From Eledone cirrhosa (lineage: Eukaryota), in contig OZ024745.1 in the NCBI GenBank assembly GCA_964016885.1, positions 117,304,001-117,368,000 on the forward strand: a stretch of DNA of 64,000 bases, in the 5' to 3' direction. Shown one piece after another: positions 8,721-53,229 of the stretch. Under the pieces are notes generated by a model. That model did no database searches, had not been told where the DNA came from, and worked only from the letters and a program-made list of their open reading frames with translations. A program made the position numbers and the translations under genes. Numbering within the stretch: the stretch's first letter is position 1; each line of letters begins with the position of its first letter.

Positions 8721-9006
8721 GGCCCAACTCCTTAGAGACTTTGTTTCACCCTTCTGAGCTCTGCTATTTACACCAGATAATTAACCTCACAAGATAAAGC
8801 AGGCTCCTCGATTGGTAGCGAAATTGATGAACATGGTCAATACCAGAACACTAATATTTTCATAGGAATCTTAAATCTCAGCTTTGAAATAAATATCATT
8901 TTTGTTATTTGAACTATTGTATTTTTGAAATAATTTTAACATTTCTTTCCTTGAAATGATATAATTATGGTTTCTTTGCAGATAATTTGCAGCAGATACT
9001 TTTAGA

Positions 9007-9162
9007 ATGATGTCAATAAGTGTTTCAGATAATCCTTTAGATTACCTGGAAGAAAGGATGATTGACAAACTTTTCACAAATTGTGATGAAGACAATAGTG
9101 GCAAAGTCTCCATTAATAAATTGTTAAGTTATCTTAAACAGTTAACATGTAATAACCCTGTT
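9007..9162 (+). CDS. Coding exon 1: MMSISVSDNPLDYLEERMIDKLFTNCDEDNSGKVSINKLLSYLKQLTCNNPV (EF-hand 1)
   Basis: Acceptor tttctttgcag at 8971-8981 (implies an upstream non-coding exon), ATG at 9007, donor gtgagt at 9163, EF loop DEDNSGKVS. Confidence 0.9.
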
Positions 9163-12100: not shown

Positions 12101-15100
12101 CAAATGCTGTGTGCAGGAGAGGCGGCTGCATTGGTATGGACATGTGATGCGTATGAAGGATGACGGCTGCATAAAAAGGTGCAGAGCACTAAAAGTTGAT
12201 GGAAACCGCGGAGTGGGGAGACCCAAGAAGACCTGGGATGAGGTGATAAAGCCGACCTTACCCAATTACACCTCTCAAAGGTGATGACACACGACCGTGA
12301 CCTCTGGCGTCACGCAGTAATATAGAAGACCCGACCCCCTCCCCCCCTCCCCATGGGTACAAGCCAAAGCTGAAGCATATAGACAATATTCCCCCACACC
12401 CTCCCACTGCAAAGTGGTGGTGGAGGTGCCACGGCAAAAAAAGAACCCAGCCCACACTGTAAAGTGGACGTGTAGGCGCCATGGAAAAAAAGCACCCAGC
12501 ACTCACTGTAAATGAGGTTGGTGTTAGGAAGGGCATCCAGCTGTAGAAATCAAGCCAGAATCAGTTCCCGTATGAGCAAGGCATGGTCAGCCGACCGGCT
12601 ACTGCCGACACAGGACAATCCGTCTAACCCATGCTAGCGTGGAAGAACGGATGTAAAACGGTGATGATGATGATTATATAATGATTTTTTTACCATTTCA
12701 TCCATTTTATAAAGTAAAAAACTTAAAGCCTCCATGAAACCATCACATTATTGCCCAACATGTCCATTAAAGTTGCCTGCAATGATTATGAAGTCACCAT
12801 CACTCATTAGGGAAGTAGTTTACATTAGTGAGATTTAAGTCTGTTTAGGACTAGCCTAGGTTTAAAGATACTGTTGTTCACTCTATTTACTGCAATTACC
12901 ATATCTACCCATTTTTCTGCTAAGAAAATACCTACTCTGCTCAGTCTGTTGTCACTGCCTACCCAGAAAAAATTGTAGCATTGTTCTTTGCCCACAAGGT
13001 GTCTAGCTGATGCACCCCTCCACCTAGTCTCTTGTACAAAACACACATCCACTTTCTTTTGCTCCAGCATCTCTACAATTTCCCCTGATATTCCTTTCAT
13101 TGTGCTTACATTGATAGTGGACCTGTGAAGTTTTTGAGTTTACTGAAAGAGAAAGTTGAATTCTTTGGCAGGTGAATTGTTGTTGGCTTTCCATATCTGA
13201 AATGAAGAAGAAAGTTTACATAATCGCCTGGAGCCACATGATGGGTTCATATTAAGAAGAATTTCTCCAACTTTGTAGTTCATATGCCATGTAAATCACA
13301 AAGTCCACAACAACTGTACATGATGATAGTAGTAGTAGTTATGATAGACTATGAGTTAAGACATTTTCATGCTACTGTTTGATTGGTCCAGCAGGATATG
13401 GGGGTGGGGGAATGAAAAATGAGCCACTTGATTCAATCCTATAGAGAGGCCAGAAGATGATGACTGAGTGAATATGAAAATAAGATTGTAAACTGTTTCA
13501 GAAATGCCCAGGTAGAACGACATAACTGTATTATCTGGAAGATAACAATACTAACTCTTCAGGCATGGAAATTAAGTGTTAGACAATGCTTCAGCTAGCT
13601 CTTCAAAGTATTAGAACCTTATGTGCAACCACCAGTAAGACCCCACACACAAATGGATATTCATTCATAAAAAAATATCCACAAAATATGGCTGCTTAAT
13701 TCCAACTTGGTCAGTTTAACTTAGCACATTCCTGATGAAATATAACCCATGTCTAAATATATTTTTATATATATAGACTGCAGTTGTACACATGTGGTTA
13801 GCCAATCTGCTAACAGAATATGAAAGTTCAACATTAAAATCACTATCATATACAGATTCTAATCTGCCTACAATATTCCATAATACTCTTCTACTTGTCT
13901 TAGAAGAAAGCCTTAATATTTACTATTGTGAATGAACATTATTTTATGACACTACTAATTCCACATTCTAGAGGGGGGAAAATGTTATGAAAATTATTCC
14001 ATAGTTTGGTCTCTAATATTGCATGATTCCTAATGGTAGCATGCTTGCCATACAATCATAATGTTGTTGGTTCGATTCCTATATAAGCTGTTGAATTGTG
14101 TTCTTGAGCAAAACACTTTCTTTCATGTTGTTCCAGTACACTCAACTGAGAATGAGTACTAGCAGTAGCTGGGAAGTTAATCCTGTAATAGACAGGCATC
14201 TTATCCAGGGAGAGTCTTGTACTCTCAGTCACTTAATGCCAAGGAAACTGGGGATAAGACTGGCGTGATGAGCCTTCAGCTTAGAACAGACATTACACTG
14301 TTACATTTTTATTAGTCAGATTACCTCCATGTAAATTAAAGCTATGTTCCTTATAGCCCAATTCTGTTCCAGTAACATCATCATCATCGTCATTGTTTAA
14401 TGTCTATTTTCCACGCTAGCATGGGTTAGATGGGTTTGTCCCATTAAATGCAAGCTGGGTCGGGTGACCATGTCTCACTCATATAGGACTGTTGCTGGCT
14501 GGTTTTCTATGGCTGGATGCCCTTCCTAACACCATATTAATGCATGCATATTCCTGTATACATAGAAACATACTACCCGAATCCATACATACACCACAAT
14601 CATGCACACACAAACACATGTGCACACATACACACACTATGTAATCTTACTATGAATATTAACTCTTAACATCCTGTACCGCGTGAAACTGCATTAGCAT
14701 GATATTCTTGAAAAATATAAAATTGCATTATGACTGCATCACATGGAAAATGTAAGTCTTTGCTCTAATACTTCAAGTTTTCACAATGATCTGCCAAACC
14801 ATTATTGGATATTAAGAGTTAATTAACAACCTTCCTTATGTAACATTATTTTCAGAGAAAATAACTGTATCACATCAAAATATACTGTCTTTACTCTAAC
14901 AGTAAATTTCCACAATGATTTGTCTGCTAATAAAGATACTATAAATATTTAAATTTATAAATCTATTTTAAAACATTTTCTTCTAAAGTATTACAGGATT
15001 TTAAAAGTTAAATGATTTTCTATTACTAGGTTTTTACTGAACTGGATGATCTCACATCACTTTTCAATTCTTTTGCCGACCACAATACACTTGATATCCA

Positions 15101-18100
15101 ATCTTATAGGCTAGCTATGACTGAATGGATTGGAGCTATACGTCAACCTAGGTATGTGTTGTTTTCAATTAATTGTTTTCATAATTTTAAGTATGAATTG
15201 GATGTTAAGATTTTTTGAAAAAGAATGAAATAGTAGAGACCACATATTTAAAAAATTAAATCATTTAACCCTTTTGATACCAACCTGTCTGAAACTGCTC
15301 CTCACTCGATGATACTAAACTGTTTATTTTAAAGTATTTATCATCATCATCATTTAATGTCCATTTGCCCTGCTAGCAAGGGTTGGATGGCGCTACATAA
15401 ACCAAGTCAGTACTAAAGTGGGGCCACTGACATCCCAGTCAGGTTAAGGAGGTCTGTATCCTGCTTATGTATAGTCATTATCAAGTGCAGAGGAGATGTT
15501 GTCATGTCTTTTGACACAAACTGAAGGATCCTCCTAATCCCTTGTTTGGAAAGCTTTCTATAAGTGGATGCCCTTCCTAGCACCAACCAATTTACAGCAT
15601 GTACTGGGTGCTTTTATTGTGTACATCACCAGCACTATGTAGGGTGTCTTGTCCTTGATATAACTACAGGATCTTTTATAGTTATTTATTTATTTAAAAA
15701 CCTATTATAATTTTAATTAAAAACCGTTGATAAGCAACAGCTTAATAATCTCTCTAAATTCTTGATTATCTTCAAAATTACTAGAAAATTATAGGTAATG
15801 TATTTCACTAGAAATATGATAATGAAATGGTTAAATATAAATTTCTTGCTTAATTCCAACTTTGCTGGTTTACCTTGTTGTAAGGAAAATAAGTTAAGAA
15901 TCACACGAAATCAAGTGATCATTTACAACTGTTATTTAGTAGTTCAGCCTATTAGTTTTCTATCATAGATGATCTTTCTTTAAGGAAAAGGGCCAAGTCA
16001 TCTGCATAGTCAAGATCTTCTAAATGAGGGAAAGCATTCACTGGTCACTTCTAGGTTTATCTGATGTGGTCTTATGCTCCAGTTAATAATAATTATGAAG
16101 AGGATAGGATAAAGTGTAGTTTTAATGCCCATTGGATTCCACTGAAAACCGTTTAGAGACTGTATTGTTAATTACTACACTGTACTAGATGTTAAGGAAT
16201 GGCTTGTGAGGACAGTGCAAACTATGTACAGAGGTACTGTCAGTAAAGTGAGGAATTCCAGATACAAGTAGAAGTACATCAGGGTTCAGTCCTCAGCCCG
16301 CTCTTGTTCATTATAGTCCTCCAAGCCATATCAGAGGAGTTTAAGACTGGCTGCTCATAGGAACTTCTCTATGCTGACAATCTGGTTCTTATAGCAGAAT
16401 CAGAAGAGGAGCTAGAGAATAAATTCTGGCTATGGATCAGCGATTGGAATTAAGAGGACTGAGAGTGAACCTAGCTAAGACAAAAGTGTTGATAAGTAGA
16501 AAAGAGGACAAAACTCTGATTCCATCAGGACCATGCTCGATATGCAGAAAAGGAGGTGGCATAAATTCTATAAAATGTACACAATGCAGATCTTGGGTAC
16601 ACAAGAGATGTAGTGGGATAGCAGGCAGACTAACAGGTAGGGAAAAATGCGTATGCAGTAGATGTACAGGGAAATTAGACAGTAGAAGTCGCATTGATAG
16701 ACACATTTTTCAAATGCAGGCAGGTTCTATAGAAGTGGTTGATAGCTTTCGGTACCTAGGTGATCAAATTAGCATGGGAGGAGGTGTTCCGCGGCCATAG
16801 TATCTAGTTGGAAGAAGTTTTTAGGGAGCTGCTTCCTCTGCTGACAAAGAAGGGTTTCTCCCTGCGTACGAAAGGCCGGTTATATGATGCCTGTGTGAGG
16901 TGCACGATGCTGCATGGTAGTGAGACATGGGCAGCAATTGCAGAAGATATGCGACGGCTGGTGAGAAATGAAGCAAGCATGTTCCGTTGGATGTGTTGAG
17001 AGAGAAGCTGTGTTTAAGAGGAATAAGTTGTAGTGTGCGGGAGAGATGACTGCGATGGTATGGACATGTGATGTGCATGGAGGATGACCGCTGGGTAAAG
17101 AGGTGCCAAGAAATGCTAGTAGAAGGAAGACGCAATAGAGGAAGACCACGAAAAACATGGGCGGAGGTGGTGAGAGCAGACCTCAGATTGCTGAAGTTCA
17201 CGGAGGAGATGATGAAGGAGATGCTATGCTGAATAGGACCCGTCCCACTCTTGCAAGCAGGGAAAAGCGGACGTAAAATGATGTTGTGCGTGTGGAAAGT
17301 GGATAATATTTCTAAGTTGTCTAATATTTCGAGACCCAAGAGTATTTGGGATTGGGATGAGTAATATTTATAATATTTATTTTGAATTATGTGCTTATCA
17401 ATTTATCAGTTGCTTTTTCTTAATTTATCAATTGCTTTTTCTTAATTTATCAATTAATCTTTTCATTTAGTCTTTCCAGTGAAAACAATTCTGAGGTGTT
17501 AGTTCAACTGAAAAGTTTGTGCACTCAGAATAACCTACTTAATGATGAACTTGATAAGATACGGCAGCAGCTAGAAGCCACTGAAGATTCGTTGGCTGCA
17601 TCAACAAAAGAAAATGTAGAGCTTAGCAAAAATATCAAAAAGTAATTTTTTTATTTATATTTATTTGACCCGCATTCCCTAGTACAAAGTTAATCTACAG
17701 TCATTAGGCACCTTTTAACCAAATATACGCCGCAACTACTACCCCTACTGCATCCTCCCACATCCACCAACACCACCCTTTCTCTGTAAAGTTATGTTGG
17801 TACCACAACATCTAGTCCACACTAAATAGGTCATGTAGGTGTCACGACAAAAAAACACCCAGTCCACACTGTAAATGCGGCTGGTGTTAGGAAGGTCATC
17901 CAGCTGCAGAAACCCTGCCAGATACAGCCCTATATGAGTGAGACATGGTCACCTGATTAATCTTGCCTCAAGTGGGACAATTCCTCATCTAACCCATGCT
18001 AGTGTGGAAGATAGACATTAAATAATGATGATGATGTGCTGCCATTGAGAAGCTATCTATAAAGAATCTAAACTATAAATTTATTTTCTCATTTATATGA

Positions 18101-21100
18101 AGGTTGCAGAATGTTGTTGAACAAAAAGAAGTACTTGAAAGAGAAAATGAAGACCTAAAATCAATTGTACACTATTGGATGGAAAAAATCCAAACAGAAC
18201 GAAGTTCAAATGATAATCAACGGGAAGGCATTTTGTTGGAAAATAGTAAACTGAAAAGAAATGTAGGTAGTTTAAATTATTTCGTAATTTTCCCTATTTT
18301 GTAGAGTATAAATTAGTTTTTGTGTGTGTTTGTGTTCATATATATTGAGAGATAATGAATAAAAGGATCCCAGATTAATTTGGCAGTGAGTCCTTTGGCA
18401 CCTCCCAAAAACTGGCAAATTCTTTAATAAACTGGCTCTTATATAATTTTTCTACTGGTATTAGGCCTGTCGCCAGTCTTTGGTACTCTGGAGAGCTCCA
18501 GAATATTCTGGGTGAACAATCTAATTCACAATAATTCTAAGGGGGAGTTTTGGATTAAGCATATCACTAAATTTTCTAAATCTGAGTATGCACCATTGAA
18601 AAGTAGGTGGGACAGGGCCATCTAGTGCACCCCCCTGACAATGGGTCTGCTTGGGGTATTCCTTTGAACTCAGTCCACTTGAGATAATTTTCAGGTTAAT
18701 GCCTGATTGGTTACATGTCATAACTCTAAGCCTATACAATCCTCTCTTTACCATATAGCGTTGATGGCAGTGAGACATGGGCTTTGTGTGCAGAGGACCT
18801 GCACAGACTGGAAAGGAATGAAGTATGCATACTCCGTTGGATGTGTAATAGTAATATACGCGAACGGCAAAACATAAATGAACTAAGTGAGAAATTAGGA
18901 ATAAGAGGGATCAGATGCTGTTTACTTGAGAGAAGACTATGTTGGTATGGTCACATGATGCGCATGAAAGACGACAGCTGTATAAAAAAGTGCAGGGCAA
19001 TCAGAATTGATGGAAGTTACGGAGTAGGTAGACCTAGAAAAACCTGGGACGAGTTGATAAATTCCGACCTTACACACTTGCACCTCTCTAAGACAATGTC
19101 TCTGAACCGAGATCTTTGGCACCACGCAGTAATGCAGAAGACCCGTCTTGCCTATGTACAAAGCAAAACCTCCAGTCAGTAGGCACCTCTTAACCAAATA
19201 TACACCCCCAACCCATGACCCTACTCCATCCTCCCACTCCCACCAACACCACCCTTTCTCTGTAAAGTTATGTTGGTACCACAACATCTAGTCCAAACTA
19301 ATGAGGTCGTGTAGGTGTCACGACAAAAAAACACACAGTCCACACTGTAATGTGGCCGTGTAGGTAACATGGTAAAAACCTCCCAGTCCACACTGTAAAT
19401 GTGGTTGGTGTTAGGAAGGGCATCCAGCCATAGAAAACCTGCCAGACAGTCCTATACGAGCAAGACACGGTCACCCAACCAATCTTGCCTCAAGTGGGAC
19501 AATTCCCGTCTAACCCATGCTAGCTTGGAAGATAGACATTAAATGATGATGATGATGATAATGATGATGTTCAATGTAGTTCTCAAGTACATTTGCACAA
19601 CCAATCAAAACAATCTAGCATTCTTGTTGGTTAAATTATATTCAGCTGTAGAAACCAAGCCAAAAGTGGGATGTATGAGCTAGATAAAGTCCCCCTGACT
19701 GCTCTAACCTCTGAACAACTCATCTAATACATAGAAGTATGGAAAATAGATCTTAAAATGATGATGATGATGAGTGTAAATTCAGAGAGGTTTGGTTGCT
19801 ATTTTTAGCAGATCAAACAACCACCTTGAAGCTTTCTTGTTTTTATTAAAGGTGCATATTCAGTTAGATATAACAGATTCCATTTGGACTCAGAAATATA
19901 ACACATTTTGTCTGTTTTTCTAGTGTTTGTACTGTTTCTACTGTTTATAGGTATATTTTAGAGTATTAACATATTTGACGTAGTGACCATTAAATACTTA
20001 ATTAACCCTTTAGCATTTAAACCAGCTGTATCCGACCAGAACTTTCTCACCTCTTTTTGTTCAAACCAGCTGTAACCGGCTGCTCATACCTACATTAAGG
20101 TATTCTCAAAATAAATAACATCAAAATCTCATAGCTATGATATTATGTGAGATAAGTATGTGGGGTAAAGTCTTTACTGTGAAAATATAGTAGTAAATAC
20201 AGAGTAATGTAAATGCTAAAGGGTTAAGAATGCTTATACAATGAGGAAAATACAATTTTAACTAAACTAGCAGAAAAACCACCCTTCGGGTGGTTTTCTG
20301 CTAGCATTTGTAGTGTGTATATTGATATTATACGCAGGTATATATATATGTAGATATGATGCATCAAATAAAATCGTAATTGACAATATATAATACATAG
20401 AAATTGAACGAAGACTGCGTTACACTGTCTTATTTAATCAGTAACGTAATCCATGATACATTAAAAAAGACGATATTATATATAAACTGCATTAGAGAAA
20501 ATTAGTGACAGAAAATTAGTATGTTTATTTAAGCGATCGCGAACCGGATGTGTTGACATTTCAGAAATTTTAAAGAAGTGAATCTTTAAATAAACAAAAT
20601 ATATTTAATCAACAGCCACGAAATTTAGTAGATAAATTATGTAATATTCATTCATTATTCAAAGTAATCCAACTTATTTTACTAATGGGATAAAAAATTA
20701 TAAACTGTACACAGTCCCACGCTCCTTACTTTATTATAGTTTAGATGACTCTCATCATTTTAATAATTTTGGTGAATATAGACAACATCTGCAAGTATAT
20801 TTCATTCTTATTAAACCTTCTCAGCTAAGTGTAGACCTCACTGCATACAAACTGAAATAGTAAAGAAGGAATCACTAAGTAGATGTATAATCATCATCAT
20901 CATTGTTTTTATGTCCACATTTCCATGCTTGCATAGGTTGGACAAGTCCTTCTCAGCACGGCATCTCGCCATTTGTTGTGTTCCTTCATCATCTTCTCTG
21001 CCAGTCTTAGCAATTTGAGGTCAGCTCTCACAACCTCTGCCCAGGTTTTTCTTGGTCGTCCTCTACTGCAGCTTCCTTCCACTGGGATTTCCTGGCATTT

Positions 21101-24100: not shown

Positions 24101-27100
24101 CTTTGCTCATATGGGTCAGTATTTTGGCTTGGTTTCTACGGTGGATGCCCTTCCAACCTCATTTATAGTGTAAACTGGGTGCTTTTTATCATGGCACTGA
24201 AACAACCACCTTACAGGGTGAACTGGATGCTTTTCGTTGTGTCACCAACATGACTACCTTACAACGTGGGCTTGGTGCTTTTTTTTCTCATGGCACCATC
24301 ATGATCACTTTACAGGATGGACTGGTTGTTTTTGTTGTAATGTTGGATCAGCCTACACTTGTGCTAATGCCATCTGTGTTTTTGGTTGCCTCAAACAATT
24401 ATAGAGGGAAAAACCAATATTCCCTGTTGTATTTTATAATTGACTCAATTTTTATTGTTGCTTATAAGTTTAGAAATATATTTTGTTTAGATTTCTAATT
24501 ACATTTTCATACTTAAAATAATTATTTCAATGAACACTGATAAATCCTTTTTGTTGTTGTAATCAACAAAGAAAAATGCTAATTTATATTTTAAACAAAG
24601 AAAAACTTGTAAATCTTTTAGTATTTTAAAAGATTGTTAAGATAGGTTCTGTTTAAAGAAATATTATATTGTGAATATTTATTTATATTTAATCTGCATA
24701 GAAAAAGAAAATTGAGATTGAAAAATTGTCAGATTATTTTGAAATTGAAATTATGAAAGTAAGTATAATGTATTTTATTTTACCCTCAGTTTAGATTAAC
24801 CCTTTAGCATTTAAACCGGCCGTATCCAGCCAGAATTCTCTCACCTCATTCTGTTTAAATCGGCTGTAACTGGACAATCATACTTTTGTGATGGTATTGT
24901 ACTCAAAGTAAATAGTATCAAAATCCCATAGATTTGATATTATGTGAGGTAAAGATTTTACCGTGAAAATACAATAGTAAATATAGAGTAATGTAAATGC
25001 TAAAGGGTTAAATCTTTCAAACTGCACCTTAGAGCATATAAATGAATTGTTATTCCTTGTGTAGGTATAAGGAAATGTAGTAGAGTTTGTGTGAGTGTAT
25101 AGATGGGAAAAGGGCTGTGTAAAATGTATATGGGAACATTTTTCAGTGATTGTGAATATTGATATCAAATGAGGAAGATGTATTCAAATGAAGCTTAACT
25201 GTTGTTCCCAACAATACTTGGAAATAGGAGTAGCAAGTACAAGCCTGCAAACAGTTCTTATACAATTAGGGATTCTCTTGACAAGTCTACAACTTCTAAT
25301 ATTTTCTTGTTTACTTTGGAACAAGATTCATATAAATGAATAACTAGTTTAATGCTAATCTGTAACATAAAGTAAAGGTGATACTTTTAGCTAAAACAAT
25401 TGCTTGTTATTGTTATAGGCAATTCTCACTTTAACCCTTTAACATTTAAATCGGCGGCCATATCTGGCCAGAATTCTCTCACCTGTTCCTGTTCAAACCG
25501 GTCATAACTTGCTACTCATACTGATGTTAAGGTATTGTTCTCAAAATAAATAATAACAAAATCTCATAAGTTCGATATGAGATAATTATAAAGCCTTTAA
25601 TGCGAAAATACAAAAGTAAATATAGAGTAATGTAAATGTTAAAGGGTTAAAGAATCAACTGTGTTATGGAATTTTGTAGATTTCTCATTGTTTTGTTATA
25701 GTTGAAAGCTGATTTGAATAAAGCTGAGGAAAAAGTGTCACTGCTGAAGAAAGCTAATAAGGTTTGTGGATATGTTTAACTCTTAACCTGTAATGATTTA
25801 GCAGAAAATATTTTGAAATGGGTTTATTAATTAAAATGTTGATGATAGCTTTACTATTGGGCAGATTGTTGTGAAAATTTGCAGTATTAGAGTTTATTTA
25901 TTAATGTGATGTATTCATAGTGCTGATTTATATTTCTCAAGAATATCTTGCTAATGTAGTTTCGTGTGGTACAGGACATCAACAGTTAATTTATAAAATG
26001 GAATTTATAAAATGATAATTAGGATTAATAAGGATTCTTTTATTGTAATTATTGTTAAAAATAAATAATTTCTTCAGTGATAAACTTAATTGTTAGAATT
26101 AAAATTGCTTAACAGTGAACATTTATGAACATTTAGGTCATACTAAGTTTTCATTAATAACTTTAAAAAAATTCCTTTTCAGGAACTTAAAACTCATAAT
26201 TTTGATCTTGATGCCCAAATAATCCAACTAAAAGAAAATGAAAGGTAAATATTCATTCTAAGAAAAGTTGAAATATTTATGATACTGACAGCATTATTTG
26301 GGAAGGTTGTACAGCTTATGAGAAACACAAGTAGTTGTAAACAAACATATGTAGCTGATCTCTCAGACTTTTCTGAAACACTGAGAGGATAAAGTTGATA
26401 TAAAGTGTACTGTACTCATGTGTGCAGATGCTATAAAATAGCTTATAGTGTGAAGATCCTTATAAGCTATTTTATAGCATCTCTGTGCATGAGAACACCA
26501 CTCTTTATATTAAGAAGCAGTTGTATTTCATTCCAGATTTATTAATCAATTAGATAATTAGTTTATTAACCTATGGTCACGAATCTTGGGTAATGACCAA
26601 AAGAATACGATCCACAAATACAAGTGGCCGAAAGGGGATTCCTCCGAAGGGTCTTTGGAGTAATGTTACTCAGTAAAATGCATAGCTCAGAGGTCAGAGA
26701 GTCACTCCAGGTAGAGCCTCTACTTCTCCGAATTGAGAGAGCACAGCTCCGATACTATGGCCATGTAGCTAGAATATCTCAGGAAAGAATCGCTGGACAG
26801 ATTTTATGGGTAAAACCAACCGGCAGGGGACCAAGTGTTAGCCTCCAAGCAAGATGGTTAGATAACATCCATGAGCTTGGCTGGTCTTGCTTGGGGATCC
26901 AGCTGGATCAGTTGGAGACAGTTGCTTCTGACAGAACCCTCTGGAAGGAGAGTTTGAGGACTCTGCGCCCACGACCCTCAGCAGGGCCATCTTAACGCAT
27001 GGGCATGCTGGGCAGTTGCCCGGGGGCCCATTTGTATTTTTATTCCTGTGAGTGGTTGTGTAGGTAGGGGCCCCAGTGCTCTGCTTTTCCCGGGGGCCTA

Positions 27101-30100: not shown

Positions 30101-33100
30101 TCCAAATCCCGGTCACAACAGCATCTTTTCAAACACATCAGGTGCATCTGGGAATGATGACTAACCTCTCAGAGGCTGTGGTCACTCCAGTTAGAGCCGC
30201 TACTTTTCCAAATGGAGAGATCATAGCTCCGATATTACGGACATGTGGTTAGAATGTCTCAGGAAAGAATTACTGGACAGATTTTATGGGCAAAACCAAC
30301 TGACAGTGACCCAGGGGTAAACTCTGAGCAAGATGGTTGGATAACATCCATGAACTTGGCTAGTTTTGCTAGGATTCAGCTGGATCAATTGGAGATGAAT
30401 GCTTCTGACAGGACCTGCTGGAAGGCGGGCTTGATGACTCTTCTCCCCACACCCCTCCCAGGAATAAGGGGTCGAAGAAGAAGATGGTTAATCCAGGGCT
30501 AGTTGCATTTCTCATGTTAACATTTTACAGCTCTTTTTCATTCAGATATATATATATAAAGCGCCCACTCCACACTGTAAAGTAGTCATATAGGTGTCAT
30601 GACAAAAAACACTCAGTCCAAACTGTAAAGTGGTTGTGTACAGTCATCATCATCACCGTTTAATGTCCATATTCCACGTTACCATGGGTTAGACGAAAAG
30701 TCAGTGTCTCGACAAAAAGCACCAAGTACTCACTGGAAATGTAGTTAGTGTTAGGAAGGGCATCCAGCCCTAGAAACCAAACCAGAAACAGTTCTGTATG
30801 AGCAAGACATGGCTATCTGATCTGGCTGAACAACTCATCTAACCCATGCTAGCATGGAAAAACAAATGTTAAATGGTGATGAAGATGATGATGATGATGA
30901 TGATAGCATCTATCTGTGTTAAGTGTCCACCCCAATTACCTGTCTTTCATATATCTAATACTCATTCTCCACCTCCACTTTTCTCTCAAATTCATTACCT
31001 CAATCAATGAATTAGTCTCAATTTGTTCTTGCCTTGTTGCTTTAAAACCCTTATTGCCCATTAGTGACAACCTTACAACACATACATCTTACACATAATA
31101 TAACTTCTTTTCTGTAAATTTACTGCAAATAGAGACAATATTTTCCTAAGTTTATTTTATTTATCTTATCTACTACATTCATGGTTGTAGATTTAACTAC
31201 CGAATACTGATTAGATAAGTTTATTTACAAAACCAGACTATTACTCCCAACAAACCACCTGAGCTATCCTCAGCCTATCATTTTTCGCATACTTAATGTG
31301 TTAATTGCAGTTGAGACTGAGACGCTATAAAATCTCTTGTGTACCATCTTACTACTCACTATGCATAATATTAACTTCAGACTTACTCCATCTTAGGCTG
31401 CTAATACTAATTTTTGTTTTGATAAGTTACACAGGGATTATAATAATCATATGTAGCTACACTGATCTGTTTAGTAACAAATAAAGATATTGAAACGTTT
31501 GATTTAATTCTATATCTCAGTAAATCTCCTGAAAGTGGAACCTGCGCAATTTTACCTGTTGTCATTGAAGAAGACATGGACAGCTATCAACCAAAAGATA
31601 TCAGTGAAAAAGCACATTCTAATGGTGTTCCATTGAACCAATCTAATAGGACTCTCAGTAGTGAGTTAGAAGGAATGGTGAGTGGCTTGAAATAGTTAAA
31701 TACATATTTGTTTTCTTTTTAGAAAATTTTCCTCAATTATAATTTATGAAACAGAAGTTTTCTACTTCATTAATCATACTTTTAACTGATCTTTAATATA
31801 TATCTAGTTCTATATTCCCTTTTGTTTTAGAAGGTTCTCTGTTCCTGCTGCCTTGACCCTTTAGCATTTACATTACTCTATATTTGCTATTGTATTTTCA
31901 TGGTAAAGGCTTTATCTTACATAATTATCTCGCATACTATCAAATCTACAAGATTTTGACATTATTTATTTTGAGAACAATACCTTAATACAAGAATGAG
32001 CAGCCAGTTACAGCCGGTTTGAACGGAAAGAGGTGAGAGAATTCTGGCCAGATATGGCCGGTTTAAATGCTAAAGGGTTAAGTCAGAACCATTATTTGTC
32101 CTTTAAGGGCGGTGGATTGGCAGTATCGGTAGAGAGTCGGACACCATGCTTTGAAGCATAGAGTTACGTCCCTTTATGATCTGAGTTCAAATCCCGCCGA
32201 GGTTAACTTTGCCTTTCATCCTTACGGGGTCGATAAAATAAAGTACCAGTAATGTACTGGGTAATTGCTGGCCTTGTGCCTAAAATAGAAACAATTATTT
32301 GTCCTTTAATCATAAAACAATGAATATTTATTATTGTTAGGTTGGTGAATGTTTACCGTCCCCTATTTGTGAAAGAGAACATCTTACTGTTTCACCTGAT
32401 AGCCACCCAGCTGAATCTAAGGATTCTATATTGGCTAATCTCTCAAGTTTCAAAGATACATTACAAAGTGCTGTCGAAACTGTAAGTATACAGTTGATAT
32501 ATTGATCATTTTCATTGTGTAATACTATTAAAGATGACATTTTGGTATAGATATATGGTTCTCGAGATTTAGGGATTCAAACTCACACACAGACAGACAT
32601 CCTCAGTTTTATATATATATATATATAAACAAAGTTATCTCGAATATTGGGTTTGAAGTGTGAGTGTATTAGAATTCGTAGAATAACAAGAAGACACAAC
32701 GCAAGGAAGCTGTTAAAACAGCTAAATGCCATCAATGACACCATCAGGTAAAATTTACCTCAAAGAATTGAAATCAGCGGCTAGAAGTGTGTTGGCGCAC
32801 AAAAGTGATAGGAAGAAAGGAGAAAAAGAAGAAAAATAGATGAGAGGAGATTACACAAAGATTTAAATACTCTCATCAGCTTTTAGACTGCCTGTGGTTT
32901 TGATCATTTAAGTAAAAGTACCACATAAAATAGATGGCTCATGCAACAGAGAAATAAATATTTCTGTTGGTATGATGTTTGTGTGACACATGAACAGATT
33001 AGATAGACAGACTGTAGGTCAGAGAGAGAAAAATAAAGTGCCTCCACTTGGCCTCAGGTCACTGTAAGAAAAGGCAACCACAATGGCTCTGTGACGAGTA

Positions 33101-36100
33101 GGAGCAGTAGGTAGGTCAAAGGAGAAGGAAAGAAAAGAAGCAGTAAGAGGAATAAAATAAACTATTGACTGAAGTGTATCTCGGAAAGGTTTTCTAAGCA
33201 CCATCCTGATAGCTGTAGACAGTATGTAGAACAAGGAAACCTGAATAAGCCCCCAATCTGTCTGCAGCCAGGGAAATGTGATTGTGGTGATTAAGAGCAT
33301 AAAGAATTGTATTCACTAGTCTAACACCCAACGTTTGGCTCTGTCCTCTCTGAAGATAGATGATTGGAGTGGATCTAAACAAAGGGCCAGTTATTCCAAG
33401 TTCTAACTAATAGAGAAATAAACATTAACCATTTAGATTTACAATTAGTTGAGTATATAATTCTTCAGCCGTAGAGAGCTTGCCAAACAAAGGGCTGGGA
33501 GGACCCTTCAGTTGTGTCATCACAATCTTTCCTGTTCGATTGATAGAACTTAAGATAGTATGTAAGTGAGATTTTCACCCCCCCCCCCCCCCCCCCCCAT
33601 GCCCTGTCTGGGAGGTCAGTAACCCCGCTTTAGTACTGACTTGGTCTATATTGACCCATCCAACTCTTGCTAATGGTGAAAGCAGATGTTAAACCATGAT
33701 GATGAAGTCCCTATAAACAAAAGTTAAAAGTCTCAAAAGACATCATCTGTGCCTTTCAATTCCTTTGATAACATGGAAATTACTGATGCTATAATTTCAA
33801 GGAATTTGTAGACACCAATCTTCAGAATATTCTGTCATAGTTTTTGAAATGAAAAAGATAGTGGTGGTGAAATTGCTGGTATCCCGTCTGTTGCCATGAA
33901 AAGAGAAAAAGTAGGTTTTAGTTGACTTTCTGTTCATTATTGGTGTGGGATAATTTATGATGTCATATTTCTCTGTCATATATAAAATGCAATGTTTTGA
34001 AATGTTGTGTAGAGTGGCTCTGTCAATGATAAACCAAGCAGGTCATACTCAGATTCTGTCATAGCTACTGAAGCAAGAGAGAAGATGTAATGTTACATGA
34101 TGTGTAACATTACTAGTGCTTTGTCTATCCCCCCCTCCCCAAAAGATAGAGGAATGTTCACACACTTTGCAAGTAGGTTTTTGTGGCCTTTTTTATTATT
34201 ATTGGTACAGTGTAATTTATGATATATAATAAACAACTTGAGAGAGAGACTAAGCATAAGAGGTATCACATGTTGTGTTCTGGAGAGGAGATTGTGTTGG
34301 TATGGCCATGTGATGCATATGAAGGACAACAGCTGTATAAAAAAGTGCATAGCAATGAAAACTGATGGAAGCTACGGAGTGGGTAGACCAAGAAAAACCT
34401 GGGATGAGGTGATAACAACTGGGCTTGCTCACTTACACCTCTCTAAGACAATGTCACTGGATCGAGATCTTTGGCGCTATGCAGTTGTACAGAAGACCTG
34501 CCTTCCCTTGCATACAAACCTACAATCAGTAGGCACCTCTTAACCCAATATACACCCAACCCCACCCCACACACCCTACCCCATCCTCCCATTTCCGTCC
34601 ACAACAAAAAGCACCCAGTCCACACTGTAAGGTGGTCATGTAGGAGACACGGTAAAAAGGCTCCCAGTCCACACTGTAAATGTGGTTGGTGTTAGGAAGG
34701 GCATCTAGCCGTAAAAAACCTGCCAGAGACACTTCTGTATGAGCGAGACACAGTCTCCCCACCATTCCCGCATCAAATGGAACAAAACTGTCTAACCCTT
34801 GCTAGCGTGGAAGATGGACGTTAAACGATGATGATGATAATGAATATATTATTGTAGTGTGTTATGAAAATATCCCTGAAATGCATTCATTGACTATTTT
34901 GTATGTTTATGACTTAATGAGTGAAACATTTTCTTGATTTAGGTCACTGAAATACAGAAACAACTTATTAATTTTACTCACAAGATGGAATTAAATATTA
35001 GTAAGGATATTAAATGTATTTCCTGCTCAGAATTTCGACTCAATGTAATTGGTACTCTCTCCCAATACAAAGACTGGGTGGATTTGTTACTCTACAAAAA
35101 GGCAACTCTAAATAGCTGGTGAGTATGTTTTGATATTATTGAATTTTTAGTTATTCTCTGTTTTTAAACATTTTTTGAAAACTACTTAAAATACAGAAGT
35201 AGGTGTTTAGTGTAAAGAGGTACAGTGATTCTGTAAACTGGACTTTGCAAATGCCATTATTTAAACTACAACAGAAAAACACTTCATATCAGAGACCTTT
35301 CAACGGGGATCTTACTTCACATAATATCAGAGGCATGATACTGAATATATCATTTTTCCTGATACAACCCCAGCTCCGATACTTTGGGTATGTGGTTAGA
35401 ATGTCTCGGGGAAAGAATCGCTGGCCAGATTTTACAGGCGAAACCAACCAACAGCAGACCCAGGTGTAGACCCTGAGCAAGATGGTTGGATAACATCTAT
35501 GAGCTTGGCTGATCATGCTTGAAGATACAGCCGGATCAGTTGGAGAAGGTTGCTTCTAACAGGACCCGCTGGAAGGAGTCATTTGAGGACTCTGCCTCCA
35601 CGACCCTCCCAGGAATAAGTGAGCGAAGAAAAGAAAGAAGAACCCTACCCAACAACTAAATACAACAAAACTAAACTAGCTAAGACATACCACACAAAAA
35701 TACAATTACCGTAAAAAATTAAAGTTAAGACCCAGCTACTATACTTAGTTTTTATTGTACTCATATTAGTGGTTGAGTGTTCTTTTAGTACATTTCTAGT
35801 ATTTTATGTCCAATCTTCTTTCATCATCATCATTATCATCATCACCGTTTTACGTCAATTCTTCCACGCTAGCATGGGTTAGACAGGTTTTCCTGTTGTG
35901 GGCAATGCCAGGCCTGATGACCTTGTCTTGTTCATACGGGAACTGATTTTGGCTTGATTTCTACAGCTGGCTGCCCTTCCTAACACCAACCTCATTTACA
36001 GTGAGTACTGGGTGCTTTTTTTACGGTGGCGCCTACATGACCACTTTACAGTGTGGGCTGGATGCTTCAGCATATTGTCTATATGCTGAAGCATATAGAC

Positions 36101-37463
36101 AATATGCCTCCTCCTCCAATACCACTTTGCAGTGGGAGGGGAGGGGGCATATTGTCTATATGCTTCAGCTTCGGCTTATTCCCGTGGGAAGTCGGGTCTT
36201 CTTGATTACTGCGTGACGCCAGAGGTCACGGCCCTGTGTCATCGCCCTTAGTATAATATATTAACTAAATCAGAACAAGATATTTGAAATAAATCTAAAT
36301 GATCATAATGTTGATTATCATCATCATCACTGTTTAGCACCCATTTTTCCATGCTAGCATGGGTTAGACGAGTTGTGAGACAAGCCAGATCAGATGACCA
36401 TGTCTTGCGCATACAAAGCTATTTCTGGCTTGGTTTCTACAGCTGGATGCCCTTCCTAATGCCAACCACATTTACAGCATGTACTGAGTGCTTTTTGTTG
36501 TGACACACCTACATGACCACTTTACAGTGTGGACTTGGCGCATTTTGCTGTGATGCCTACACAACCACTTTACAGTGTGGACTGGGCATTTTTTGTTGTG
36601 ACACAAGCACTTTACAGTGTGGGCTGGGCATTTTTTGTTGTGACACAAGCACTTTACAGTGTGGGCTGGGCATTTTTTGTTGTGACACAAGCACTTTACA
36701 GTGTGGGCTGGGCATTTTTTGAAGTGACACCAAAATGACCACTTTATTATGTGACACCTACATGACCACTATACAGTGTTGGCTGGGTGCGTTTTGTTGT
36801 GGCACCTACACAATCACTTTATAGTGTGGACTGGGGACTTATCTATTCTTAATGTTCTATTTGAAAATATATTTGTTTATTATGAATGATCTCTTTTTAT
36901 TTTGTGATTTATAATGTCTCATTTTAAGATTGATATTTTATCTGGTTTTAGGGTATCACAAATGATAAAAATAATCACAGGTACGTACATATTTTTATGA
37001 CTCCTTTTATCTGAATAATAGTTTTGAAAATGAAAATACAAAAAAATGTCAGTTTGGTTTCTTTTACTGATTATATCAAGTGATATGACAGTTGAGTACA
37101 AAGTCTTTAACTTTGTAAATGGTCAGCAACTGATCATGGTTGAAGAACTGTTAAGTCATAAATAAACACAGACATGGACGTACACCTACACACACACATA
37201 TATATAACAGAATTGGTTGTTGAAATGGCAAGAGCTCAGCTGTTGTGGCCCCAACTCTTTCTAATATAGTCACACTCTACTATCTTGAATATCAAGTACT
37301 CTGCTGAATATTGGTCATACTAGTTTAATACTGGTTAAATCCTTATATATAGTGTAAGTTATTCAGCGAATCACTGAAGGTGGTCCAATAAGGGCACTTT
37401 ATGCACAGGCAGAGTGTATATAAATAAGGAAAAAAACGATGAAGTTTTGTTTACATGTATTTA

Positions 37464-37506
<43 letters not shown>

Positions 37507-40500: not shown

Positions 40501-43500
40501 GAAGCAAGACAAATCTCTTTGCATATGCCCGTCATGGAAAAACAAGGAATATTGTGTACAAGGAGGTGCTACAATCATTGTTTAGGTAGACGAGGCAGAA
40601 GGGGATATACACGATTGGCTGAAGAAGGACGAGACTGTGTTAGTAGTACGACCAACGGCTGCTATCACACCAACAGCAGCAAAAACAACAACAAAAAAGA
40701 GAGGAAATGCAGTTACATGATTTTGAAAAATCTTAATGGAAAATTATTTGCCTAAGCACAAAATGTAGACACCATCCCCAGGCCGAGGTATTCCGTACTT
40801 CTCTGTACTGTTTCAGAAAGGAGGGTTAAACAAGCTAATCTATGTTTAGAAGCCTGAGCAATGCCGGGCCATTCTGCTAGTATATATATATATATATACA
40901 CATACACAATAAGCTTATGCATAGTATCCATCTTGCAAATATTACTTACATGGCCTTGGTCAATCTGAGGCCATAAAAGAAGACACTTGCTCAAGGTACC
41001 TGGAATCATGTGGTTACAAAGAGAACTCCTTAACAACACAGACATGCCTGTATCTATGTTGCTTTGTCTCTCACCACCTATATTCTACTTCTCAAACCAA
41101 CATTCAAGTACTACATGCAATCTGCCATTCTATGTGAAACTATTCTCTGAATGCACCCCCATTCACTTTAACTATGCCAATATTACTAAAATTCCATAAT
41201 TCTAATTATGAGGTGGTCTTAAAAACTTTCAGGACTAGTTCTGTAGTGCACCAACAGATGGTAACACATAGTTGTGTATTCAGTGAGAGCTAACAGTGAC
41301 CTTTATGCGCTAGTGTGCCAAGTAACATTGCTGTGTTGACTTCGCAAGTTGCGAGATATGTGTTTTTGTGATCACGTGTATGCTGTAGCCTGAGATTTTG
41401 TCATGAACAGGAATTTGGAACAAAGAACCAATGTGAAATTTTCCGTTCAACATGTGAAGTCTGCTACATTCTTCATATCGAGGATCATCTCCGGTAACAA
41501 AAGTTGGGTCTACAGGTACGACCCTGAGATGAAGCAGCAGTCAACACAGTGGAAAAGCCCTTCATCTCCACAACCAAAGAAGCCACAGCTCAATCAAGAG
41601 CATGCTCATCGTTTTTTTCTGCAGTATCAAGAAATTAGCCCTCAGGGCCAGACTGTCAATTGAGAGTTCTACTGCAACGTTTTGAGGCGTTTGAGGGAAG
41701 ATATTCAGCGAAAGTGACCAGATCTGTGGAGCATGAAGAATTGGATTCTTCACGATGACAATGCACCCTGTCATTGAGCTCTCCTCACTTGTGAGTTTTT
41801 CGCCCAAAACAACATAGTATCACTTCTGCACCTGCCCTATTCGCCAGCTTTAGTACCTACGGACTTCCATCTCTTCTCCAAGCTGAAAATGCAGCTCAAA
41901 GACCACTGTTGTCAAGATCCAGAGTGAATCGCAGAAGGTCCCTGACTTCCTAACGGAAAATGATTCCCAGGTTGGATTCCAAAAGTGGCAAGGACGCTGG
42001 AACTGATGTATTGCTGCGCAAAGCGACTATTTCGGAGGAGATGAAGTTAAAACTTAGGTAAATATATATATTTTTTTAAAAACATAAGTGGTGTGGGAAC
42101 TTTTTAATACCACCTCATATGTATAATTAATTCTCTTCTGATTTGAAGAACTTTCTTTATGGTTGACTTGTAAAAGGGAAGGACATCTAGGTGCTAATGT
42201 TTGTTCCAGTCATCCATATATCTACATTTTCAGAACTGACCATAAACAATTTGTTAAAGAAATATTGATATATTTGATTATACTTTTTAAATACAATTAA
42301 GTATAAATTGCCTGAAACTGCTTACATTTAAAAATTATCTAATTTATTCTAGACTCAAGTATATTTTCTTTTGAAAATATTAATGATGGTAATACCAATT
42401 TACCAGAACATGATGTAGAACTTTCTAAATTGAAAACCATCTTTAAAACAATTGCTGTGCAGGTAGAGTTTTAAAATATATTCAGTTTTTATCAACTCCT
42501 CTCTTTTTCTCTCCTTTCCCTCTTCACCTCTATCTCCCTTCTCTCTTGCTCTTTCTCTTTCTCCCCACACCCTCTCTCTCTCTCATGTAATTGTATGTAC
42601 ACGTGTACTAGAATGTAGCTTTGCATGAATGAATGAGACTAAAACAAAATATCTGGTAGAGAATGTTGAGAAGCCAGAGGGGATCACTAATGTAGGCGGG
42701 AAGCCGCTAGAATTGGTTGAGGACTTCCTGTATTTGGGAGCAAAGATTGGGAATACGGAAGATGATGTGGTTGAGAGGAAGAGCAAAGCCTGGGCGGCGT
42801 GCCACAGCTTGAGATCGGTGTGGAAGTCGGACCTTCATAAAGACCTGAAAATCCGCCTCTTCATTGCTGTAGTGGAGTCTGCGCTGCTGTACGGGTCTGA
42901 GACTTGGACACTTACCAAGAAACTCACTCAGATGGTGGATGTGTGCTACATGAGAATGCTGAGGATGGCTCTGAACATTAATCAGTATACACTGAGGATG
43001 AAAAACTCAGAGCTGTATGGGAGCCTCCCAAAAGTCAGCTCAAAAGTGACACAGAGGAGACTGAGGTTAGCTGGACATGCTCACCAACATCCAGAGTTGA
43101 CATTGCACTCAGTGCTCCTGTGGGAGCCCCTAAATGGACACACTGGAAGAGGAAGACCAAGGATAACGTATGTTGATGCCCTAAGGACAGACACTGGACA
43201 GACACTGGTCTGTTGGAGACGCAGGACATGGCAGCGATAATGAGGGACAGAGACTGCTGGAGAGAACTCGTCCGTGGATATCGGGAATTTTACCCGCCCT
43301 AAAATATATATATAGTATATGTGCATCATCATCATATGTCCGCCTTTCCCTGCTTGCAAGGGTGGGACAAGGGTGCATATGTATATATATTGAATGTTTA
43401 ACTTTGTAGCACAAATCAGATTTTATTTGCTTGTATATATATATATATAACGAAGGAGGTGTGGTAAGGAACCAGATGGACCATAACACACCAGAGTACT

Positions 43501-44617: not shown

Positions 44618-44676
<59 letters not shown>

Positions 44677-47600
44677 CATTCTATCTATTTTTGTCTATTT
44701 TATACATAACATCTATGTAATGCTAACTGTAAGATAGTGAGTTTGCATTATACTTATATACTCAAATATTTTTGATATAATTTTGTAAAAAGTATAAATC
44801 AGTATTGCTGAGATTTGAATTTTATTCATTTTATTTATTTATTTTTTTTGCAAACATTTTCAAATGATTATTTACTCTATTTTTCTTTAGCTTCAAAAAT
44901 TGAGCAAACCAACTGTTGAAACTGACAAAGATGTTGAAAAGAAAATTTGGTTATTGATAATGCAGCATTTTCTTTCTAAAGAAAATTACAGTGGATATTT
45001 AATTCAGTGGTAAGTATAATTGTTTCTACTTTTGGCACAAGGCCAGCAATTATCCCAGTGCATTACTGGTACTTTATTTTATTGACTCCGTAAGGATGAA
45101 AGGTAAAGTTAACCTCGGTGGGATTTGAACTCAGACCGTAAAGGGACGTAACTCTATGTTGGAAAGCATGGTGTCCAACCCTCTACCGATACTGCCAATC
45201 CACCACCCTAGTGGTAAGTGTAATGTAAATAGATTATAATAAGGAAATATCACAAAGTTCATAACAAGCAAATAACATGTAGAACAGCAATGAATGGTTT
45301 CAATTCAATGTTTATTATGGACTGGCTGTCATACCCAGCTTTATTATTATTACCTAAAAGGGCGGTGGATTGGCAGTATCGGTAGAGGGTCGGACGCCAT
45401 GCTTTGCAGCATAGAGTTATGCCCCTTTATGGTTAACTTTGCCTTTCATCCTTACGGGGTCGATAAAATAAAGCACTAGTAATACACTGGGGTAATTGCT
45501 GACCTTGTGCCAAAAGTAGAAACAATTATTATTACCTAAAATAGATACAACCACATGAATTCATTCTGTTTCAGATAATTTGCCATAAAAAGATGTGAGC
45601 CATCTTTATTTGGTCCAGGAATGTTAACTCAGAATTGTTGCAATTCAGAAAATGGTTTGAGTTGAGTTACATAAAAATGCATTAAAAACAATATAGAACC
45701 TAAAATAGAACCTAAAAAAAGTTTGAGATCCTCTCATCTAAAGCTGTGGTTATAAGTATTGTTACTGATCATGATTTACAGGAATATACATCAATTCCAC
45801 AGTAGTTTTGAATAATCTAACTATTGTTTTTATGGTTATGTTAGATTGTCACACCTGATCTAATGAGTTCACAGCAGACCATGTTTGTACTATTCTGTTG
45901 TTTATATCATTTGACCAGTTGGTATATGCCAAGGTATTTGATATCTACTTGAGAACAGTATTACTTAATGATTTGATATTTGTTGCTTGATCTGAGTTGA
46001 TGGTCATATATTTGGTTTTGTTGACATTTAGAAAGAGTCCCGTAGCTTGAGTAGAACATTTTAAGCTGAGCCTTGGGACAATTTATCAAAATTGTTGCTT
46101 TTATGATGACATCATCATCATCACCGTATAATGACTATTTTCCATGCTTTTCATGGGTTAGATGGGCTGTCATGTACTGAAGCTAGACTGGTTAAGTGTA
46201 CCCCTTTACAGAATGTACTGGGAGAATTTTATTGTCATTCTGATGCTACCACCTTACAGGATGGACTTGGTGTATTTTGTCATGGCCCTACCACTGCTGC
46301 CTTACAGTGCACTACCTGGCAAGTTCTTTTGTAAAGTCAGGGGTCATATAGATTTTTAAGAAGAATGATGGGAATTCATTTCTTCAAGAAAGATTCAGTG
46401 AATTTAAAAACTTTATGGGAGTAATTTATTGATGGGTGATTAGGAGATTTATCACAGAATCCAAAGGTTTATACATAATGGACTCTCCTTGAAGAAGATA
46501 TAAACACTTAAAATTCATCATATTTACTATTTCATTTATTGGAGCTAAGTATAACATTTATGATCATTGAAGTAGAGCTAGATATTTAGGTAGTTCATTA
46601 ACATCTTGAGTTTCATTTTCACACTGAGATGCTATTTCTATTAGTTCATCATTGTTGGCTGGAATTGGACAATTGTGATTTTGAAGCAATAAATTGACAT
46701 ACTTGCTACTTTTTATTTTTTTTATTTTTTAAAGACAGTTCTCATATTTGTTGATCACATGCCCCCAGAGAGATGAAGGTAGAGGTAGGCATTCAGGTTA
46801 TTTTAGGAACCACAGACAGAATTTGGTAGAAATCACCTGCAATCACTAGCCATGATGTCATAGGTTTTTCTTGTCTCTCAATGTCTGCTTCAATGTTTCA
46901 AGAGCAAGTTTTTTGGCTATTGTTCCTTCACCCCACATAATGGACAGCTGACATGGACAGATTTTTTGGCTATTGTTCCTTCATCCCACACCATGGACAG
47001 CTGACATGGGCAAATGTTTTGGCTATTGTTCCTTCATCCCACACAATGGACAGCTGCCATCCTGAGCCTATGTTAATGTTGCTCACAAGTACATTTAAGT
47101 ATGTTAAGTTCTTCAACCTGTGATAGGTATGGCAGCTGTGCTTGATGAGACTACAGCAAGGTCAATCTTCTGTTGACCTTTAACCCTTTAGCATTTACAT
47201 TACTCTATATATATACTATATTCTCTATATATACTATACTCTATACATTCATGGTAAAGGCTTTACTCCACATTATTATCTCACATAATATTGAATCTAT
47301 AAGATTTTGATATTATTTATTTTGAGAACAATATCTTAACATCAATATGAGAGGCTGGTTATGGCCGGTTTGAACAGAAAGGGGTGAGAGAATTCTGGCC
47401 AGATATGGCCAGTTTAAATGCTAAAGGGTTAAGTAAGATCAATTCAACAGAAAATCAATTGATAAAAGCTTTGCCAGTTCCTCTAGGTGCTTCTAAGGAT
47501 AGAATTTGGGTTTCATTGTAGATATTTCTTTGATCTGGCATCATAGAACAATGTTATACGGTTTTTCTCCAATGTCTTTTAGGTAGCTTCATGCAAAAGC

Positions 47601-50600: not shown

Positions 50601-51267
50601 CTTCTTCCAACCCGTCCTTCTACTAGATACTATGGCCTCGGAGCACCCTCTCATGCTAATCTGATGACCTAGGTATCAGAAGCTATCAACCACCTCTATA
50701 GATCCTACATGCATTTGAAAAATGTACCTATCACTGACACTTCAACTATCAATTTTCCCTGAACATCTGCTACATATGAAGTTTTCCCTTCCTGTTAGTT
50801 TGCCTGCTATCCCACTACACCTCTTGTGTACCCAAGATCTGCATTGAGTACATTCTATAGAGTTTATGCCAACTCCTTTTCTACATATCGTGCATGGCCA
50901 TTTCCTTGATGGAATCAGAGTCTTGTCCTTTTTCCTACTTATCAACACTTTAGTCTTTGCTAGGTTCACTTTCAGTTACCTTGATTCCAACTGCTGTTTC
51001 CATAGCCAGAATTTATTCTCTAGCTCCTTTACTGATTCTGCTATAAGTACCAGATCGTCAGCATAGAGAAGTTCCCATGGGCAGCCAGTCTTAAACTCTT
51101 CTGTTATGGCTTGGAGAACTATAATGAACAAGAGCAGGCTGAGGACTGAACCCTGAAGCACTCCTACTTGTATCTGGAATTCCTCACTAAACTCCATTCC
51201 TACTCTCACTTTACTGACAGCACCCCTGTACATAGCTTGCACTGTCCTCACACACCTAGTTTCCTTA

Positions 51268-51357
<90 letters not shown>

Positions 51358-53229: not shown

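Follow-up and report, generated by a model that had tools for sequence, protein, structure and literature searches.

A 64-kb stretch of an octopod genome very probably holds the first 14 exons of a long LRMP (futile-cycle-type) gene

The DNA analysed here (64,000 nucleotides of Eledone cirrhosa, G000:C5:117,304,001-117,368,000 in a 3.0-Gb genome; hereafter, the window) is AT-rich, with about 40% of it self-repeated, and raises the question of whether an EF-hand pair and a coiled coil scattered over its + strand belong to a compact KASH5-type protein, as an earlier note on this DNA had it, or to a larger gene. We conclude that the window very probably contains the first 14 exons of a single LRMP gene of the long, futile-cycle type, about 310 kb in length and on the + strand. 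With equal confidence, its product is predicted to be 1,644 residues long, with an MRVI1 domain between a KASH5-type EF-hand pair plus coiled coil on the N-terminal side and a single membrane anchor at the C-terminus. The reading as a whole, in which this long LRMP gene encodes a likely nuclear dynein adaptor, is given a probability of about 0.8.

The exon chain was built by splice-site scans. All 14 exons in the window are GT-AG and lie on the + strand; they are given below with their matches to P0026, a cephalopod protein of 1,587 aa encoded on one 5,767-nt Logan contig (38-65% identical):

8993..9162, + strand: exon 1, with the ATG at 9,007 and the first EF-hand; EF-hand_9 match
15030..15151, + strand: exon 2, second EF-hand; E 1e-07 to P0026
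17480..17641, + strand: exon 3, start of the coiled coil, KASH_CCD positions 3-53; found by tblastn
18103..18262, + strand: exon 4, coiled coil; found by tblastn of P0026
23349..23429, + strand: exon 5, coiled coil; pairwise alignment only
24702..24758, + strand: exon 6, coiled coil; found by tblastn of P0026
25702..25761, + strand: exon 7, coiled coil; pairwise alignment only
26183..26244, + strand: exon 8, end of the coiled coil; pairwise alignment only
31521..31677, + strand: exon 9, Spindly-like motif LSSEL (aa 332-336); found by tblastn
32341..32481, + strand: exon 10, LPSP motif; found by tblastn
34943..35118, + strand: exon 11; E 7e-06 to P0026
36952..36980, + strand: exon 12 (29 nt), splice sites 14.5/10.5; alignment
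42353..42462, + strand: exon 13; splice scan and alignment
44891..45009, + strand: exon 14, last long-form exon in the window, ending in phase 2 (TG)

From the ATG at 9,007 to position 45,009 the chain reads as one frame of about 530 aa. This much of the 17-exon, 579-aa chain described in the earlier note stood, whereas the exons proposed as its transmembrane (TM) end are out of frame with exon 14. A tblastn search with P0026 (E under 5) matched nine of the 14 exons in order, exon 14 at only E 3.4, and in a pairwise alignment with P0026 all 14 exons aligned, with identities of 49/88 in the EF part, 79/195 in the coiled coil and 90/238 in residues 288-531. Exon 1, which has a single DNA match in the genome, is 78% identical to Octopus vulgaris P0009 and 55% to P0026, and the LPSP motif of exon 10 is common to lizard KASH5 and the invertebrate long forms. 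Since the frame of exon 1 is open upstream to the acceptor at 8,993, a short coding exon may precede it; a search for one encoding the N-terminus of P0009 had no success. A candidate exon at 34013..34072 (+) was rejected, its donor being a GC of score 1.4 and P0026 having nothing that corresponds to it.

The best Pfam match of exon 1 was EF-hand_9 (E 3.1e-05; 24.8 bits, below the cut-off of 37), and exon 3 matched KASH_CCD in register as its third-ranked match (E 0.032, below cut-off); three of the six window exons scanned against Pfam were without a match. The spliced 5' part reached 71.6 bits with a profile of six vertebrate KASH5-like proteins (best of three controls, 20.2) and 108 bits with one of 19 non-cephalopod rows (best control, 28.5). 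The Pfam matches and profile scores thus bear out the proposal of a KASH5/LRMP-type protein with an EF-hand pair and a coiled coil in a mollusc. A homology search with exon 1 alone yielded none of five candidates. Among the matches to the P0026 N-terminus, 17 of 21 carry EF-hand_9, and the named ones include frog, lizard and bat KASH5; membership in another EF-hand coiled-coil family was also checked, and none of the ten matches looked up was named as ninein or CRACR2A.

The introns are full of short LINE copies, with larger LINE fragments at 10,207-11,634 (+), 56,106-58,110 (-), 6,067-6,321 (+) and 62,914-63,273 (-); five of ten stretches scanned had RVT_1, endonuclease, PHD-like or zf-RVT matches, and the largest lies in intron 1. 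Two tandem arrays, at 22,177-22,954 (43 bp x 18.1, 93% matches) and 36,518-36,730 (42 bp x 4.9), are also intronic. Broken frames at 41,310-41,819 are, judging by their motifs, presumably a mariner transposase; the one stretch of them that was scanned had no Pfam match.

Where the chain goes after exon 14 was followed by splice scans and tblastn of octopod proteins, the window being extended by 300 kb downstream and 100 kb upstream (positions beyond the window are given as extended coordinates, that is, the C5 position minus 117,304,000). This retrieved 23 further exons, up to 256 kb past the window end, of which the following matter most here:

C5:117,374,533 (extended 70,533), + strand: next in-frame exon after exon 14, 6.5 kb past the window
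C5:117,505,006-117,518,266, + strand: MRVI1 exons, with Pfam matches at extended 201,003-214,273
C5:117,623,509-117,623,701, + strand: TM and tail exon, with the stop at 117,623,701

Exon 14 has a strong phase-2 donor (score 11.5) in frame with the downstream acceptor, and joining it to extended 70,533 gives the junction codon TGG. The full model has 37 exons and 1,644 aa, is GT-AG throughout and has one stop, at its end. Three of the four MRVI1 matches are over the Pfam cut-off and lie on the same strand as the window exons; the fourth is weak and contains a stop. TM windows occur only at about 1,602-1,632, followed by a P-rich tail ending YYSMPPF. Identity of the downstream exons to Octopus bimaculoides XP_014777495.1 is 67-100%, and when 20,612 ORFs were scored with a profile built on family tails from outside the cephalopods, the last exon came second. 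A candidate exon at extended 118,017-118,100 was rejected as lacking a counterpart in homologues. From end to end, P0026 lines up with the model in the same order, and the passage from exon 14 into extended 70,533 is part of that colinearity. The splice between these two exons is thus predicted from the gene model and this relative; reads of runs X4 and X1 on 44,700-54,600 are repeat-dominated, and exon 14 is without cover among the contigs listed, a further 1,026 joints, 2,045 loose ends and 133,964 pieces lying outside that listing. The earlier note had seen no MRVI1 block and had named further exons supplying one as evidence against its compact KASH5-type architecture; such exons lie 137-150 kb beyond the window end on the same strand, and a compact KASH5-like gene is therefore not supported.

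The long form turns out to be present already in database annotations of many invertebrates, among them snails, bivalves, a chiton and a coral. Matches to the MRVI1 core carried all three domains in 9 of 22 cases, two in 4 and MRVI1 only in 9; those with three or two come from gastropods, bivalves and a chiton, and several are named LRMP-like or IRAG2-like. A rescan of six relatives found MRVI1 and EF-hand_9 in all six and KASH_CCD in five, and in the coral Porites (P0078) all three domains are over cut-off. The earlier note was aware of no such adaptor in molluscs; many molluscs have such proteins annotated. No paper on an invertebrate long LRMP/KASH5 was found by title or abstract; the original fue paper or supplementary material may give the invertebrate range. 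Two Patella caerulea proteins (P0065 and P0080; 509-522 aa, one named KASH5-like) have EF-hand_9 and KASH_CCD and no MRVI1, and may be split models or true compact forms.

In a tree of the N-terminal region (22 rows, with P0055 and P0063 left out as too short), P0026 is the partner of the model (100/100), both standing among molluscan long forms, and six vertebrate KASH5-like rows form their own group (100/100); the tree is midpoint-rooted, its deep forks are open and it holds no fish Fue row. The grouping with vertebrate KASH5 expected from the earlier proposal was not seen in it. The cephalopod branch is long (1.57), and the N-terminal domains are under the Pfam cut-offs in cephalopods, P0026 included (both EF-hand_9 and KASH_CCD, next to its MRVI1). 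The linker between the EF pair and the coiled coil is nearly absent in cephalopods (86 to 98 in P0026; junction 15,151-17,480 in the window); it is likewise nearly absent in bat, lizard and shark KASH5-like proteins and runs to about 50-75 residues in other molluscs and frog.

Octopod annotations render this locus in pieces. In the O. vulgaris protein CAI9717445.1 ("lymphoid-restricted membrane protein"), exon 1 is linked to the MRVI1 part with exons between them skipped, so that most 5' exons are missing from the model; in O. bimaculoides the EF exon is a separate record of 83 aa, and four octopod records (P0001, P0007, P0008 and P0010) are MRVI1-only. The Octopus annotations P0009, P0010 and P0074 look faulty, and the O. 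sinensis model begins with a transposase scrap.

Searches of the genome, of low sensitivity, found no second locus of the family. KASH_CCD gave 25 matches, none in the window, and the one examined is a heptad repeat; heptad repeats elsewhere score higher, so that this domain alone is unspecific and useless for finding paralogues. EF-hand_9 gave eight matches, none over cut-off and with the window exon ranking last; the four best we take to be calmodulin-like. A search with P0063 gave two matches, the better one being the window exon (E 0.23). At G000:C6:95,864,242-95,867,655 (L004) the genome search also reported an open frame of 42,948 codons; the 3.4 kb read there is stop-free and Ser/Thr-rich, contains 69 copies of a 21-nt unit plus a 45-nt unit and, by eye, resembles a mucin; at about 129 kb, such an open frame would be exceptional.

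A second start lies inside the gene:

53545..53674, + strand: alternative first exon, with the ATG at 53,637, 12 codons plus 2 nt, and a phase-2 donor at 53,674

Its 5' edge at 53,545 comes from one contig and is uncertain. Its donor phase equals that of exon 14. When the N-terminus of Argonauta P0007 was compared with 13,731 windows, this exon came first (score 42, the next being 23), and P0007 continues with the extended 70,533 exon. In run X4, contig 16 matches 53,545-53,675 and then departs from the stretch for 285 letters, as spliced RNA would. The exon would start an MRVI1-only form and is apparently used. Three Logan proteins of Jaw1 size (P0003, P0028 and P0031; 379-463 aa) have another first exon, joined to extended 158,137; for that of P0003 and P0031 no counterpart was found in this genome's intron.

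What the long protein might do can be read from its better-studied relatives. According to the available parts of two studies, the EF pair of KASH5 binds helix 1 of the dynein light intermediate chain (LIC) and activates dynein, with L77, F97 and M101 mattering most (PMC9242646, PMC10071310); the fue site corresponds to V54 (PMC10071310), and a KASH5 mutant that includes the first Asp of the second EF loop weakens dynein binding. Zebrafish Fue, as far as the accessible text goes, unites a KASH5 part with an LRMP part; pronuclear migration requires it, and its known role extends to centrosome-nucleus attachment (PMC3787381, PMC3777164), and the portion available of a further paper has IRAG1/2 binding IP3 receptors via the coiled coil and IRAG2 binding SUN proteins (PMC10298018). 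When nine LIC-contact residues taken from the accessible part of PMC9242646 were mapped via bat KASH5 onto the octopod protein, three were identical (Y60, L77 and M101), four were hydrophobic substitutions and two were lost. F97, one of these four, is replaced by Tyr, and exon 2 holds the positions matching L77, F97 and M101. The fue-site V54 is Ile, and the Asp starting the second EF loop is Asn. The Spindly-like LSSEL follows the coiled coil, and both frame and motif are kept in two cephalopods.

Possible partners are encoded elsewhere in the genome:

G000:C4:245,255,873-245,297,451: dynein light intermediate chain gene, with the FF helix-1 exon at L064:8,362-8,451
G000:C302:143,188-143,352: SUN-domain exon

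Folding the EF pair of P0026 (a stand-in, 56% identical) with LIC helix 1 of this genome gave a score of 0.46, the best of three controls reaching 0.15. In a calibration without peptides, 5 of 78 solved complexes made the mark at scores of 0.60 or below, and all 4 mismatches (of 180) that passed did so in this range. The runs, in which no alignment was used, agreed in at least 72% of contacts, with a partner pLDDT of at least 60, and a complex like this one has already been solved (PDB 6PSD). The modelled contact between the EF pair and LIC helix 1 is thus weakly supported.

By homology with these relatives, the EF-hand pair would grip helix 1 of the dynein light intermediate chain, and the dimeric coiled coil, with the Spindly-like motif, would bring in dynactin. 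Through its short luminal tail the protein would attach to a SUN protein at the outer nuclear membrane, such that nuclei or telomere-attachment sites would be pulled along microtubules. This could serve pronuclear congression, as in zebrafish Fue, and probably also meiotic chromosome movement, because no separate KASH5 was found in the genome by the low-sensitivity search. As in IRAG1/IRAG2, the IP3 receptor would be the partner of the MRVI1 coiled coil, and a form begun from the internal first exon would lack the dynein-binding part. An outer-nuclear-membrane dynein adaptor with an IRAG-like second role is therefore the likely identity by homology, and the role of dynein adaptor in a meiotic or pronuclear LINC complex, which the earlier note had suggested for a compact protein, is plausible for the long one; we hold the dynein-LINC job to be somewhat more probable than its absence. 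If so, cephalopods, for which TERB1-type telomere adaptors have been reported (PMC7227075, as far as its available text goes), would have in this locus a likely dynein adaptor for their meiotic and pronuclear movements; the importance of this is modest.

The alternative that survives best shares this architecture and differs in function: the gene would be as modelled, with a fast-evolving cephalopod N-terminus that no longer activates dynein, and would act mainly as an IRAG-type regulator of the ER and the IP3 receptor. The long cephalopod branch and sub-threshold domain scores, the lost second-loop Asp and non-canonical tail, the apparently expressed MRVI1-only form (X4 contig 16) and the IP3-receptor binding described for IRAG1/2 (PMC10298018, available part) all agree with it. 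We nevertheless regard it as rather unlikely, given that the three positions on which dynein binding depends most are retained or conservatively replaced, that the frame and the Spindly-like motif persist in two cephalopods, and that the modelled EF pair weakly passes with LIC helix 1.

Considerably less probable is a fission in octopods, by which a gene for a soluble EF-hand/coiled-coil protein of about 530 aa would stand next to a separate MRVI1/KASH gene starting from 53,637, the 5' protein ending at a junction TGA or by read-through into intron 14. It is kept as a rival on account of the four MRVI1-only octopod records, which start downstream of the EF part, and it would suit the conserved and apparently used first exon at 53,637-53,674. 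However, the strong phase-2 donor of exon 14 (11.5) fits the downstream acceptor in frame, the two halves are fused in the cephalopod P0026, joined in the O. vulgaris model and fused in proteins across molluscs, all of which speak for the single long gene.

The end that the earlier note had assigned to a compact protein is the following:

53,017-53,065 plus 53,155-53,229, + strand: hydrophobic pair, earlier proposed as the TM end; out of frame with exon 14

A compact KASH5-type protein with its own TM segment here, whether as main product or alternative end, appears very improbable. The pair, once spliced, is strongly hydrophobic, with a best 19-residue mean of 3.07, and lies exactly between the 5' exon block and the internal first exon; look-alikes are rare, since 302,556 intronic bases searched on either strand yielded one on the + strand (presumably this pair) and one on the - strand, under a post-hoc threshold. 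By their junction letters the exon 8 donor would join 53,017 in frame and the exon 13 donor 53,155, and contig 15 of run X4 starts at 53,159, 4 nt inside the second acceptor. Against this, exon 14 leaves TG and the 53,017 exon starts with A, giving a junction codon TGA. No single frame-rescuing linker exon with both sites at 3 or above was found between exon 14 and 53,017; 27 have both sites at 0 or above, the best of them with a weakest site of 2.2 and in a masked repeat. For the 24-nt linker that the 579-aa, 17-exon chain requires, 14 candidates were found, none of them good; the best uses a GC donor and scores 1.3/2.6. With a TGA at the junction and no well-scoring linker, the proposed end at 53,017 is not supported, and an error of assembly is improbable, since a DNA contig (possibly from the assembly's own sample) agrees with 52,678-54,600 throughout and has no gap there.

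The pair also compares poorly with the exons of the model and the tails of the family. Its splice scores (6.2/6.8/6.9) are below the model medians of 12.5 and 9.7, though 3 of 36 model acceptors also score below 1. With the family-tail profile it ranked 1,678 (spliced) and 157 of 20,612, and with a three-sequence KASH5 tail profile 20 and 16, at E above 2. It has no Pfam match, no P-rich end and no counterpart in P0026; no AATAAA/ATTAAA was found in 53,230-53,640, and the 53,065-53,155 joint is absent among the joints listed for the X4/X1 reads. The pair, being unlike family tails, is probably noncoding. A frame at 53,118-53,297 that resembled a KASH5 tail by eye was rejected, with profile ranks of 1,106 and 2,572.

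The still broader idea that one locus makes long Fue-type, Jaw1/IRAG2-type and KASH5-size forms by alternative starts and ends, which would mean that the vertebrate split by gene duplication was reached convergently inside one octopod gene, has the same very slight chance; the KASH5-size form would use this hydrophobic pair from an upstream donor such as that of exon 8.

The long LRMP gene that we favour thus has its closest parallel in zebrafish futile cycle, which in the accessible part of PMC3787381 likewise joins a KASH5-like N-terminus, an LRMP part and a KASH-type tail; this comparison is by domain layout, no Fue sequence being among the matches. The octopod gene differs in its tail ending MPPF and in the internal first exon that gives an MRVI1-only form. 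The tail had no match to Pfam KASH (PF10541) and ends in MPPF instead of PPPX; a frog protein named KASH5 ends in MPPF too, which weakens the label of a canonical KASH and not the possibility that it works like a KASH tail. The layout of the molluscan and coral LRMP-like proteins is that of the octopod one (EF-hand_9, KASH_CCD, MRVI1, TM and a short P-rich tail), with Mizuhopecten P0040, Haliotis P0038, Mytilus P0043, Porites P0078 and O. vulgaris CAI9717445.1 listed as having it, whereas the cephalopod N-terminus is more diverged than in other molluscs and octopod annotations miss most 5' exons. Vertebrate KASH5/CCDC155 has the EF-hand pair, the coiled coil, the Spindly-like motif and most LIC-contact positions in common with the octopod protein, but at about 560-610 aa it is without MRVI1, and the octopod protein has about 1,050 further residues, including MRVI1, before the TM segment. 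Mammalian LRMP/Jaw1/IRAG2 and IRAG1/MRVI1, finally, have the MRVI1 coiled coil and tail anchor found here and, in the sources as far as available, are without the EF-hand and KASH_CCD part of the octopod long form; the form starting from the 53,637 first exon has this mammalian LRMP/IRAG layout.
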